This document shows positions 29,387 to 40,871 of a DNA stretch of 64,000 nt, piece after piece. Source of the DNA: Spirochaetia bacterium (lineage in GTDB: Bacteria; Spirochaetota; Spirochaetia; SZUA-6; Bin103); the NCBI GenBank assembly GCA_965208575.1, contig CBDBOV010000004.1:672001-736000 (forward strand). Direction: 5' to 3'. Under the pieces are notes generated by a model. It worked only from the letters and a program-made list of their open reading frames with translations. It was not told the origin of the DNA and did no database searches. The number at the start of each line of letters is the position of its first letter. Within the stretch, counting starts at the first letter, position 1. The position numbers and the translations under genes are program-made.

Positions 29387-29525
29387 GGGTCAAACCGTAG
29401 TCCAGCCTGGAGTCCGGTGACCACCGCAAAATGAACACCGAACACCGGGACCCTTGCGCGGCCCCGGTATGCGCGCACGGCTGGTTGAGTTACCCTTGCC
29501 GGCACGGAGCGGAACTCCGCGTTCG

Positions 29526-29621
29526 GGAGAGTGATGGGTGCCTGGTGGTCCCCGCGGTCTTCAAAACCGTTGTCGACCCTGCCGATGCAGGGCGAGGTGG
29601 GTTCGATTCCTACCCTCTCCG
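29526..29621 (+). tRNA. selC: tRNA-Sec (UCA), CCA not encoded
   Basis: Anticodon arm GCGGT-CTTCAAA-ACCGT, D-loop TGGT, long variable arm CCCTGC/GCAGGG, T arm GTGGG-TTCGATT-CCTAC, G discriminator; lies directly upstream of selD. Confidence 0.95.
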
Positions 29622-37870: not shown

Positions 37871-37977
37871 CGGGCAACGTACCATAGTCCGCACCGCGGG
37901 ATGGCGGCCACCTTCGGCGCCATCCCCGGTTTCGTTTGCGCGGCATCCGTGCTTGAATGGCGGGAGAGCGACACACC

Positions 37978-39216
37978 ATGAGACAGCCGACACGAGGCGC
38001 ACGGCTCGGCTTCGGCATAGCGCTGGCCGCGTTCGCCGCGGTCAGCCTGCTGGCCACCCTCTCCCTGCGCGGCGAGCGCGAGCGCAACCGGTTGCTGGCG
38101 CAGTACGAGGCGGAACGGATCGCCTCCGGGCTGTTCCTGATCGTCGCCCAGGCGGCGGCCGGTGCCGAGGTCGACGCCTCGCTCACCGACCCGATCGTGC
38201 GGGCCGCCACCTACGACGCCGCCGGCCGCGTCGAGCCGATTCGCATCGGCGCCGTGCCGCCGAGCATCGATCCTCAGCTCCTGCAACCGGGCCAGGATCG
38301 CTTCGACTACGATCCGGCGCAGCGCACCCTTACCCTCTTTCGCCGCCGCTGGCTGCCCGACAACATGCGCGCCCGCGGCGCCTCCCGCCGCGGCGGGAGG
38401 CGCCCGGGCGGCCACGAATACGTCCTCCTGGAGATGGATGCCACCGACTACTTCCGCACCGACCGCCGGTTGCGTGCCGCCCAGATCGGAAGCCCCTTGC
38501 TGATCGCGGCGGTCGTGGGCGGCGGCGCCGTGCTGATGCGCAACAATGCACGCTTCCGGCGCCGCCTCGACGCCCAGCGCCAGCTCGTGGAACTGGGCGA
38601 GGCGGCGCGCACGCTGACCCACGAGATCAAGAATCCGCTTAGCGCGATCCGCCTCAAGACCGCCATCCTGCGGCGCACCGCGGGCGGCGGTGCCACCGCC
38701 GACCTGCAGGTGATCGACGACGAGGTAAACCGCCTGGCGCTGCTTGCCGACCGGGTGAGCGAGTTCATTCGAGACCCGGCCGGCAACCGCGCACCGATCG
38801 ACCTGGGGCCGCTGCTCGACGCCCTGACCGAACGCCATCCGGCGCTTGAGGTGCAGCGCCCCGAGGCTCCGCTGACCGTGCGCTTCGACCGCGAGCGGCT
38901 GCGCTCGGTGCTCGACAACCTGGTGCTCAATGCCCTCGAGAGCAGGGTGGATTCGGCTCCCGTCGAGGTAGTGGCGGAGGCGACCGCCCGTACCGCGACC
39001 GTGCGCATCCTCGACCGCGGCGCCGGCATCGCCGCAGGCGAGCGCGAGCGCGTGTTCGACCCCTTCTTCACCACCAAGCCGAAGGGCTCCGGCATCGGCC
39101 TGGCGATCTGCAGGCGATTCGTGCAGGCCGCCGGCGGCACCCTGCAGTTGCGCCCACGCGCCGGCGGCGGCACCGAGGCGACAGTCACCCTGGCGCGGGA
39201 GCGGCCGGCGCCATGA
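37978..39216 (+). CDS. Sensor histidine kinase (ZraS/NtrB-like)
   Basis: Two TM segments; 'HEIKNPL', 'NLVLNA', 'DRGAGI', 'FDPFFTTK..GSGIGL'. Confidence 0.92.
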   Translation: MRQPTRGARLGFGIALAAFAAVSLLATLSLRGERERNRLLAQYEAERIASGLFLIVAQAAAGAEVDASLTDPIVRAATYDAAGRVEPIRIGAVPPSIDPQLLQPGQDRFDYDPAQRTLTLFRRRWLPDNMRARGASRRGGRRPGGHEYVLLEMDATDYFRTDRRLRAAQIGSPLLIAAVVGGGAVLMRNNARFRRRLDAQRQLVELGEAARTLTHEIKNPLSAIRLKTAILRRTAGGGATADLQVIDDEVNRLALLADRVSEFIRDPAGNRAPIDLGPLLDALTERHPALEVQRPEAPLTVRFDRERLRSVLDNLVLNALESRVDSAPVEVVAEATARTATVRILDRGAGIAAGERERVFDPFFTTKPKGSGIGLAICRRFVQAAGGTLQLRPRAGGGTEATVTLARERPAP

Positions 39217-40541
39217 GAGTACTGGTGGCCGACGACGAACCCAATATCCGCGACTCGCTGCGCCGTTTGCTGGAGTTGGAGGGCAACGAGGTGGTCGCCG
39301 CCGACAACGGCCTTGCCGCCCAGCGGCGCATGCAGGAGGAGCCGTTCGGCGCCGCCATCGTCGACCTGAAGATGCCGGGCATGGACGGCCTGGAGCTGCT
39401 GCGCTGGATCCGCATCGAGCGGCCGCGGCTGCCGGTGATCATGATCTCCGCTTACGGCGAGGTGACCGACGCCGTCACCGCCATGAAGCTGGGTGCGCAC
39501 GACTACGTGGTGAAGCCGTTCGATCCCGAGGAGCTGGTGCTGCGGCTCGCCAAGCTGGTGGAAGCTCAGGCGCTGCGCGACCACGCCGAGGTGGCCAGCC
39601 GCGGCGCTGCCGAATCGCCGCCGGAGCTCGGCGACAGCCCGCCCATGACCGCCATCGCCGAGCTGTTGCGCAAGGTCGCGCCCACCCCCGCCACGGTGCT
39701 GATCACCGGCGAGAGCGGCACCGGCAAGGAAGTGGTGGCGCGCACGCTGCACCACCACTCGCGGCGCTCCGGACCGTTCATCCCGGTCAACTGCGGCGGC
39801 ATCCCCGATGCCCTGCTGGAGAGCGAGCTGTTCGGCTACGAGCGCGGCGCGTTCACCGGCGCCGCGCAGCGCAAGGTCGGCATGTTCGAGCTGGCGGCCG
39901 CGGGCACCCTGTTTCTGGACGAGATCGGCGAGATGCCGGGACCGTTGCAGGTCAAGCTGTTGCGCGCCGTGCAGGACCGCCGTATCCAGCGCCTGGGCGC
40001 CACCGCGCCGATTCCGATCGAAACGCGCCTGGTCGCCGCCACCAACCGCGACCTGGAGCGGGAGGTAGCGGCCGGACGGTTCCGCGAAGACTTGTACTAC
40101 CGCCTCAACGTGGTGCGCGTGCACGTTCCGCCGCTGCGGGAACGGCGCACCGACCTGCCCCAGTTGGCGGGCCGTGTCCTGGCGCGCCTCAACCAGGCCA
40201 TGGGCCGGCAGGTACAGGGCCTCACGCCGGCGGCCCTCACCGTGCTCGGCGGCTACGGATTTCCCGGCAACGTACGCGAGCTGGAGAATATCCTGGAGCG
40301 CGCGGTGATCTTCAGCGAAGGACCGAACATCGAGGCCGCTGATCTCGACCTGGGCGAGACCGGCAATACTCCGCCCGCAAGTGCGTCCGAGCGCGCCGCC
40401 GGCACGCTGAAGGAGAACGAGCGCGCCCTGATCGCGGCCGCACTCGCCCGCTGGGAGGGCAATCGCACGCGGGCCGCCGCCGAACTGGGCATCACCCGGC
40501 GCACGCTGTTCAACAAGCTGCGCCAGTACGGCATCGACTGA
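39213..40541 (+). CDS. sigma54-dependent response regulator (NtrC/ZraR family)
   Basis: Receiver domain, 'GESGTGKE', 'GAFTGA', Fis HTH. Confidence 0.95.
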
Positions 40542-40554
40542 CCACGCGCGGGTC

Positions 40555-40750
40555 CGAAAAAGGGCCGCCCTGACGGGCGGCCCGCGCAAGTTAGTCCGAG
40601 TGATCCCTCACTCGGACACGTATCTCACACAAACTACAACTACCTCCTCAACATGAAAGTCTCGTTGGCATGGACCGCCGCTTGCGAGGCGGCCCGGCCC
40701 GGGGTGCCGTCAACGACGCCATGCCCAGGCCCAGTCACGGGCAACGTGGA
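40555..40750 (-). ncRNA. Candidate novel structured small RNA (~195 nt)
   Basis: Minus-strand TTGACA (40781-40786) and CATGTT -10 box, several hairpins including GCAA and GGGA loops, intrinsic terminator; no credible ORF. Confidence 0.6.
40557..40583 (-). terminator. Rho-independent terminator
   Basis: GGGCCGCCC-GTCA-GGGCGGCCC-TTTTT on the minus strand. Confidence 0.8.
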
Positions 40751-40871
40751 AGCGCAAACATGCCGCACTGCCGCCACGGCTGTCAATCCCCTTTTTCGAA
40801 CGAGTCAACCGCTCCGATTGACAAGCGCCGGCATCCGTCATCTGCTAGCGCAAAGGGGAGGAAACCGCATC

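Follow-up and report, generated by a model that had tools for sequence, protein, structure and literature searches.

We describe a small RNA gene in the genome of an uncultured Spirochaetia bacterium (GenBank assembly GCA_965208575.1), located on the minus strand of a 64,000-nucleotide (nt) stretch of contig CBDBOV010000004.1 (positions 672,001 to 736,000 of the forward strand). This whole stretch is called the window below, and coordinates refer to it unless stated otherwise. Read on the minus strand, the gene lies in the intergenic gap 40542-40871. It is a real, strand-specific, conserved and structured RNA gene, independent of its neighbours, and it represents a new and previously undescribed family of narrow range. 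The RNA carries every sequence signature of a translated open reading frame (ORF), which would comprise only 13 codons, and it probably serves as both a folded RNA and a tiny message. We give roughly even chances to a translated dual-function or leader-peptide-like small RNA (sRNA), whose fold, stability or activity would be coupled to its translation. The features of the gene are the following.

40781-40786, minus strand: -35 box TTGACA of the RNA promoter, read in the sequence; the same distance is kept in 18 of 20 homologous loci, with unconserved flanks.
40757-40762, minus strand: putative -10-like hexamer CATGTT, separated from the -35 box by a conserved 18-nt spacer and reading YANNNT or TAGNNN in relatives.
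40557-40750, minus strand: predicted transcript of about 190 nt, from the covariance model match and the RNA-library contigs, its 5' end being placed from the promoter.
40731-40724 pairing with 40703-40696, minus strand: helix P1, paired in 96.4% of the alignment cells.
40718-40715 pairing with 40711-40708, minus strand: helix P2, inside P1, with a GTT loop; paired in 98.6% of the cells, with T-A to C-G covariation.
Within 40696-40731, minus strand: conserved internal loop CATGG/GCAC, enclosed by P1.
40672-40695, minus strand: P3, a stem of variable length, with C-G to A-T and G-C to T-A changes.
40649-40671, minus strand: linker (CATGCCAACGAGACT...) joining the 5' domain to the ribosome-binding site, conserved and nearly invariant in both genera.
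40642-40648, minus strand: Shine-Dalgarno (SD) sequence AGGAGGT, of which AGGAGG (40648-40643) is the same in all 18 sequences and precedes the start codon by 10-11 nt.
40591-40632, minus strand: 13-codon ORF, peptide MCEIRVRVRDHSD, with a TTG start (40632-40630) and a TAA stop (40593-40591); all 18 sequences keep both the start and the stop.
40594-40617, minus strand: P4, a perfect 10-bp hairpin (40617-40608 pairing with 40603-40594) with a GGGA loop; paired in 97.2% of the cells, five of its ten pairs having changed on both sides.
40557-40583, minus strand: intrinsic terminator, found by scanning, with a 9-bp all-GC stem (40583-40575 and 40570-40562), a GTCA loop and a T5 run (40561-40557); paired in 100% of the cells.

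The intergenic DNA was matched in 14 of 41 related genomes, and its conserved part (query positions 16 to about 210, corresponding to window 40557 to about 40750) coincides with the proposed RNA. A covariance model (R1) was built from 13 copies and gave one full-score match in the genome of origin (C4:712556-712748, that is window 40556-40748). Within a single family the model matched in 18 of 24 genomes, with one copy in each; these 18 include one deletion derivative and one divergent copy at 75 bits. Four of the six family genomes without a model match have no copy at the syntenic locus, which was scanned with the filters off. Using Infernal's stricter filters, through which weak relatives could escape, full-length matches in the order (92 genomes) were confined to the family, together with two partial matches to the terminator only (E-values from 0.002 to 0.005), and a sample of the class gave matches in 5 of 151 genomes, all within the family. 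Among the genomes searched, the RNA gene is limited to this one family of bacteria, which is marine, sponge-associated and uncultured. The stretch occurs chiefly in sequencing runs of sponge and reef metagenomes, which also give the strongest run matches.

Structure conservation was evaluated on two alignments. RNAalifold, applied to a structure-blind MAFFT alignment, returned 43 pairs, eight of them with compensatory changes. In the alignment of 18 sequences, which was fitted to the covariance model and hence leans toward the structure, the five helices (P1, P2, P3, P4 and the terminator) pair in 95.4% of the cells, and 16 of the 39 pairs have changed on both sides. None of 500 shuffles reached any of five measures, and slid controls were paired in at most 47.6% of the cells. 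The divergent member (L034) has an 8-bp helix of wholly different sequence at the position of P1, as well as a terminator stem of different sequence that still pairs, and P3 is enlarged by an insertion of about 25-30 nt in the sister genus. The consensus fold is a row of separate hairpins, the ends of the RNA being unpaired with each other. An all-against-all scan of column pairs for compensatory changes revealed no further helix but only scattered single pairs, which are explained by the split between the genera. No covarying helix involves the linker at 40649-40671, which might pair with the internal loop as a pseudoknot.

A preliminary description of this DNA, made from its letters alone, had already proposed an unannotated, stand-alone and structured sRNA with its own promoter and terminator on the minus strand. 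The conserved -35 box and spacing, the terminator scan, the covariation, the matches within the family and the RNA contigs all confirm this proposal. The perfect 10-bp hairpin with its GGGA loop at 40594-40617 is present and covaries, and the comparison with related genomes suggested at that time found the RNA in 18 of 24 family genomes, with countable compensatory changes. Three other structural elements proposed earlier were not supported by the comparison. The 5' hairpin GCCC/GGGC pairs in just 63% of the cells. The closing stem GGCATGG/CCATGCC pairs in 85.7% of them, without any change on both sides, and four of its seven pairs depart by mismatch only; with P1 in place, it would possibly form a pseudoknot. 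The GNRA loops are unconserved, since the loop of P4 reads GGGA, GGTA, GGAT, GGTT, GGAA or GGTC in relatives.

The 3' half of the RNA shows three features that are fixed in all 18 sequences, namely AGGAGG, a start column reading TTG or ATG 10-11 nt further on, and a stop column. The stop column is the sole column of the alignment with a stop codon (TAA, TGA or TAG) in every sequence, and there is just one other column with a start triplet in all 18, located in the 5' domain. Start and stop columns lie 39 columns apart, gap-free and without insertions or deletions between them. Both arms of P4 are made up of codons 6-13, and the hairpin starts at +16 relative to the start codon. The stop codon directly follows the last paired base of P4, and the terminator stem begins 7 nt later. 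In 16 of the 18 sequences, residues 7-9 are R-V-R; one of the remaining two has G-V-R and the other R-A-R. Codon 9 is AGG throughout. The third base of the arginine codon 7 takes all four values and is compensated by its hairpin partner in codon 12, through which the residue encoded by codon 12 changes among S, P, T and A. Because only R7-V8-R9 and the AGG codon are fixed, and these lie at the apex of the hairpin, selection seems to keep the act of translation and the RNA fold rather than the exact peptide.

This part of the RNA had been viewed before as an exposed, low-GC and GU-rich tract, with a seed reminiscent of GcvB. The tract, with AGGAGG at 40648-40643, is present, but its GU-richness is found only in the genus of the window. 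The sister genus has a tract that is not GU-rich, in which only AGGAGGT, AGTTG and the TG of the start codon are fixed, and the idea of a GcvB-like seed is therefore not supported. What appears to have been overlooked is that the exposed tract would be the ribosome-binding site and the start of a conserved 13-codon frame. The second function proposed at that time, the titration of a protein or of ribosomes through AGGAGG/GGA, found no support either in a CsrA-type form, since GGA occurs in the loop of some members only and no CsrA was found. The earlier interpretation was thus half right: the sRNA gene is real and new, but it is neither GcvB-like nor a CsrA sponge.

With respect to transcription, TTGACA-N18-CATGTT is present at 40786-40757, as described before, and TTGACA together with the 18-nt spacer is kept in 18 of 20 homologous loci, the exceptions being one TTGCCG and one deletion. 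A sigma70 promoter scan called no promoter for the RNA gene, because CATGTT matches just three of the six positions of TATAAT; the promoter claim therefore rests on the conservation of TTGACA and of the 18-nt spacing. The GC-rich terminator with its U5 was confirmed as the sole terminator-like site that the scan finds between 40300 and 41100, and it lies on the minus strand. Folding energy by itself cannot choose the strand, since both strands fold better than their shuffles (-105.2 kcal/mol, z = -4.55 for the minus strand; -88.4 kcal/mol, z = -3.83 for the plus strand). The minus strand is indicated by the T-run together with one A-tailed contig, and is further supported by the G-U pairs (48 of 693 cells, chiefly in P1 and P3), since the plus strand would have A-C mismatches at these places.

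RNA-library contigs come from two runs recorded as metatranscriptomes, both belonging to one study, and from a probable RNA run of a second study; they cover 40580-40730, 40617-40725 (with adapter at its end) and 40559-40740. They stay within 40559-40740, and none reaches the flanking genes, whereas contigs from DNA runs do. All three carry two substitutions found in close relatives and therefore stem from a related strain. The contig that ends at 40559 has about nine non-templated A residues after the third T of the terminator T-run, a hint, from this one contig, of a 3' end within the terminator with a short A-tail on the minus strand. The 3' end anticipated in the preliminary description would agree with this hint, and the 5' end anticipated there (near 40750) agrees with the one placed from the promoter. 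RNA contigs are lacking over most of the flanking genes, which says nothing on their silence.

The neighbouring genes lie on the plus strand, with a histidine kinase gene (37957-39216) and an NtrC-type sigma54 activator gene (39213-40541) upstream of the gap. Downstream of it, two xylose-isomerase-like TIM-barrel genes (from 40872) precede a GH20 hexosaminidase gene. The RNA gene converges on the activator gene and diverges from the isomerase/GH20 operon, in agreement with earlier observation and with the gene positions 40541 and 40872. Across the homologous loci, the activator gene adjoins the RNA in just five and the isomerase gene in four. At least six distinct gene neighbourhoods were found. 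In most members of the sister genus the RNA sits between an amidase gene (convergent) and ftsH (divergent), and further contexts comprise a sulfatase and a NYN-domain gene, a nucleoside hydrolase gene, a position before an AAA_22 ATPase gene, and a solute-binding protein gene with a reverse transcriptase gene. Past the terminator, the next gene is oriented towards the RNA gene in the activator, amidase and sulfatase contexts as well as in G002 (L034). Only G010 (AAA_22 ATPase) and G023 (reverse transcriptase) have a co-directional gene at this position, and these two genes are mutually unrelated.

The limits of the unit are also apparent where it is missing. The spacer between amidase and ftsH measures about 55 nt in G013, which lacks the RNA (L154, about 1446-1503), versus about 300 nt with the RNA in G021 (L026, 1480-1778), and the extra DNA in G021 corresponds exactly to the transcription unit, with the terminator at one end and the -35 box at the other. 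In the four sister-genus genomes without the RNA, the amidase is 87-93% identical to that of an RNA-bearing genome. In the copy of G019 (L035, about 1501-1600) a deletion took away the entire 5' domain together with the promoter, beginning at the -35 box, and left the 13-codon frame, P4 and the terminator intact. Given the varied neighbours and the absence of the whole unit at a shared site, the RNA locus is therefore no control region of the sigma54 activator and isomerase genes.

We propose that the RNA would be composed of two modules. The 5' module, of about 100 nt, would contain P1 enclosing P2 and the internal loop, the variable P3 and a single-stranded linker. The 3' module, of about 90 nt, would be a miniature message made of AGGAGG(T), a 10-nt spacer, TTG or ATG, 13 codons, P4, the stop codon and the terminator. 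Ribosomes would bind the invariant SD. Considering the sizes of ribosome footprints, P4 would be positioned at the mRNA entry site of the initiating ribosome, and elongation would melt it in each round and end next to the terminator. Translation could in this manner toggle the fold of the RNA, and perhaps also its 3' end or its lifetime, while the three-helix 5' domain might offer a surface that binds or senses a ligand or a protein. This domain has riboswitch-like traits (covarying helices and conserved junction nucleotides); it matched no known class, and no expression platform was found. As in dual-function sRNAs, there is an independent small transcript with its own promoter and terminator, and as in attenuators a short ORF with an SD lies just before an intrinsic terminator. 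A classical attenuator was nevertheless rejected, as there is neither a shared co-directional downstream gene nor an antiterminator.

Several observations weigh against the translated sRNA. The translation of the 13-codon frame is deduced from sequence signatures, and the peptide is poorly conserved at residues 2-6, 10, 12 and 13. The conserved residues coincide with the apex of P4, so that RNA-level selection alone could explain them. The ORF contains codons that are rare in the genome (per 1000: TGT 1.1, ATA 1.6, CGA 3.2 and AGG 3.1), the predicted unpaired probability of the SD is 0.11-0.51, and the changes of start and stop codons represent few independent events among related sequences. 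Neither RNAalifold nor the all-pairs scan found an antiterminator helix competing with the terminator, and no co-directional downstream gene is common to the contexts of the RNA. The RNA-library evidence consists of assembled contigs, which show no level and which give the strand through the A-tailed contig only.

The rare codons and the location of the conserved residues at the hairpin apex would also fit a purely non-coding sRNA, acting in trans or binding a protein, for which AGGAGG and the linker would be binding surfaces and the frame a by-product of RNA conservation. We regard this as a serious rival, although less likely than the translated sRNA. In its favour, the 3' double hairpin formed by P4 and the terminator resembles that of many sRNAs, and the weak Rfam matches rest there (SorY at 23.8 bits, BjrC1505 at 18.8 bits). 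It is, however, difficult to reconcile with start and stop columns kept in all 18 sequences, three kinds of stop codon and no insertion or deletion in between. A seed of GGAGG type would be complementary to the anti-SD of the 16S rRNA and not to ribosome-binding sites of mRNAs, and the motif is SD-like, not anti-SD-like. Moreover, neither Hfq (PF17209) nor CsrA (PF02599) was matched in the genome of origin, which is 95% complete, and the single-stranded part has no extended complementarity in the genome: antisense matches of at least 14 nt fall in the GC-rich parts of the RNA (query 17-85 and 163-183), and only one match of 13 nt (query 106-118) touches the low-GC tract. No long antisense target was found in the genome by this search, which covered long complementarity. 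Returning to a translated RNA, we tentatively put forward, as a rather unlikely variant, an orphan attenuator that would combine the sensing 5' domain with the hairpin-threaded mini-ORF. Ribosome traffic, or a stall at R-V-R depending on Arg/AGG decoding or induced by a drug, would be read on the RNA itself, and the output would be its own fold, its 3' end or the released peptide, and not a downstream gene. Still less probable, in our opinion, is a sensor-controlled micro-message, in which a 5' aptamer or protein operator would set the translation of the mini-ORF and the basic peptide of 13 residues would be the effector. The 5' domain is aptamer-like in its conserved internal-loop and linker nucleotides, its covarying helices and its one stem of variable length, a GGCATGG/CCATGCC pseudoknot (85.7% paired) is possible, and very small functional peptides exist, such as SpfP with 15 amino acids (aa) (PMC8916003) and peTrpL with 14 aa (PMC7298713). 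On the other hand, the peptide sequence drifts, no conserved alternative helix that would sequester the SD was found by RNAalifold or by the all-pairs scan, and with E-values up to 10 allowed the 5' domain still matched none of the known riboswitch models.

The RNA might also be the orphaned and decaying remnant of a leader-peptide transcription attenuator, whose structural genes have been lost or moved. The order of SD, short ORF, hairpin and terminator is that of ribosome-dependent attenuators, the copy of G019 (L035) is without promoter and 5' domain, and six of the 24 family genomes have no model match. However, the promoter, SD, frame, five helices and terminator are kept in two genera and in at least six contexts, with compensatory changes, which indicates purifying selection and not decay; in addition, there is no antiterminator pairing and no common downstream gene. 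We therefore judge a decaying remnant to be very improbable. Hardly credible, finally, is a control region of the isomerase/GH20 operon on the plus strand, consisting of a sigma54 promoter and a palindromic activator site. The order of histidine kinase, sigma54 activator and target operon is a classic one, a sigma54-like motif (TGGACC-N5-TTGC) is present at 40671-40685 of the plus strand, and at the DNA level the 10-bp hairpin forms a perfect palindrome. The RNA element is nevertheless conserved where both the activator and the isomerase genes are distant, and the motif varies even where the context is shared, with GT in place of its -12 GC in L002 and L003 and loss of the motif in L004. Substitutions in the palindrome are compensatory, in the manner of an RNA helix, while protein-binding sites keep their sequence, and both the G-U pairs and the T-run indicate the minus strand. 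The reading as a sigma54 promoter and activator site was thus rejected, and the motif at 40671-40685, which lies inside the RNA gene on the opposite strand, was taken as a chance occurrence.

The translated sRNA may be compared with known systems. In Sinorhizobium meliloti, rnTrpL is an attenuator-derived sRNA with a functional leader peptide of 14 aa, peTrpL (PMC7968998, PMC7298713, 10.1101/606483). As described in these reports, rnTrpL resembles our RNA in being a short terminated transcript with an SD and a tiny ORF (14 codons in rnTrpL, 13 here) that overlaps the hairpins before the terminator, and in either case the transcript and its mini-ORF could each be of importance. It differs in being the leader of trpE(G) with Trp codons, whereas the RNA described here mostly has no co-directional downstream gene and contains 2-3 Arg codons. 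Furthermore, our RNA has no antiterminator, its ORF is preceded by a structured 5' domain of 100 nt, the gene is free-standing and there is no sequence similarity. Spot 42, which encodes SpfP (15 aa), is a dual-function sRNA (PMC8916003; reviewed in PMC12310071 and PMC12612679). In these papers it likewise appears as an independent transcript with its own promoter and terminator and an ORF for a peptide of about 15 residues. Spot 42 depends on Hfq and has known seeds for base pairing, in contrast to the situation here, where no Hfq was found in the genome, the ORF is folded into a covarying hairpin and the peptide drifts.

A GcvB-like, Hfq-dependent sRNA was rejected, the tract being GU-rich in genus g1 only and not in g2. 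The RNA shares with GcvB a length of about 200 nt, a low-GC single-stranded stretch containing G and U, and a terminator; unlike in GcvB, the GU-richness is lost in the sister genus, the tract would consist of the SD and the start codon, there is no Rfam match to GcvB and Hfq was not found. Leader peptides of the erm type, which belong to inducible resistance genes, carry an Arg/Lys-X-Arg/Lys stalling motif. The short ORF with its conserved R-V-R (R-A-R in one member, G-V-R in one) in a hairpin is similar and is regarded as a lead only, since neither a resistance gene nor any shared gene lies downstream of this RNA. A sponge of the CsrB/RsmZ type was rejected, as there is one hairpin loop, with GGA in some members only, and no CsrA was found. 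The same applies to 6S RNA, since the ends are unpaired and separate hairpins replace the long closed rod with a central bubble; the 6S model (RF00013) had no match in the genome of origin, in a search whose control was positive in only 5 of 14 known genomes. An identity with the signal recognition particle RNA was also rejected.

The absence from known families, which had been surmised before the Rfam check was run, was verified. At the gathering threshold of Rfam 15, the whole window gave no match at the RNA locus and a single match elsewhere, to tRNA-Sec. With E-values up to 10, the best match at the locus was SorY, at 23.8 bits versus a threshold of 111, on P4 and the terminator only. Judged by titles and abstracts, none of the papers found in a search for small RNAs of sponge-symbiont spirochaetes deals with such an RNA.

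The RNA appears to be an unusual variant of the leader-peptide or dual-function kind, its new feature being the conserved mini-ORF. Leader-peptide devices are known to regulate a downstream operon in cis, and only a few dual-function sRNAs have been described. Here a full leader-peptide module, with an SD, 13 codons folded into a hairpin and a stop codon beside the terminator, would be found in a single-copy, free-standing gene with a riboswitch-like front domain. If the frame is translated, this would demonstrate that translation can in itself serve a small RNA as an input. The 18 natural variants, with compensatory changes inside codons, offer a compact and alignable model for an RNA structure that shares its nucleotides with a coding sequence. 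It also provides a first candidate regulatory RNA for this uncultured lineage, with a narrow reach of one family.

Further searches yielded additional stretches. A pattern scan of a genome collection returned 15, five of which lie in metagenome-assembled genomes (MAGs) labelled Actinobacteria, without a significant model match; these five were taken as chance occurrences, with one weak partial match (9.8 bits, E = 0.057). A pattern scan of metagenomes returned 100 stretches, and among the 80 listed loci scanned with the model there was one true member, L106. A second match in the genome of origin, at C6:1484333-1484526 on the plus strand (locus L016), is weak although full-length (22.4 bits, E = 0.013); it shows a terminator and a stem resembling P3 but lacks an SD. 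Another copy of the RNA, almost identical, is present in a MAG contig titled Aggregatilineales (L038), a label that differs at the phylum level from the title Spirochaetia of L040-L051, and this suggests a labelling or binning conflict among public records.

Finally, some minor observations were made in the window and at one homologous locus. The tRNA-Sec gene (RF01852, 61.9 bits) is located at 29525-29621 on the plus strand. A 713-codon open frame, antisense to the kinase and activator genes (38448-40589, minus strand), begins just past the stop codon of the mini-ORF; it failed the coding-like filter on GC by codon position and is probably a shadow frame of a GC-rich genome. In G023, a reverse transcriptase gene (RVT_1; L029, 6-1070, minus strand) lies on the same strand as the RNA, about 430 nt downstream of its terminator. 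Some group II introns insert after terminators, and this gene may belong to an intron of that kind. A second TTGACA, at 40818-40823 on the plus strand, faces the isomerase gene at about 30 nt from the -35 box of the RNA itself and is conserved in the four isomerase-bearing loci, which suggests that the RNA gene and the isomerase gene have back-to-back divergent promoters.

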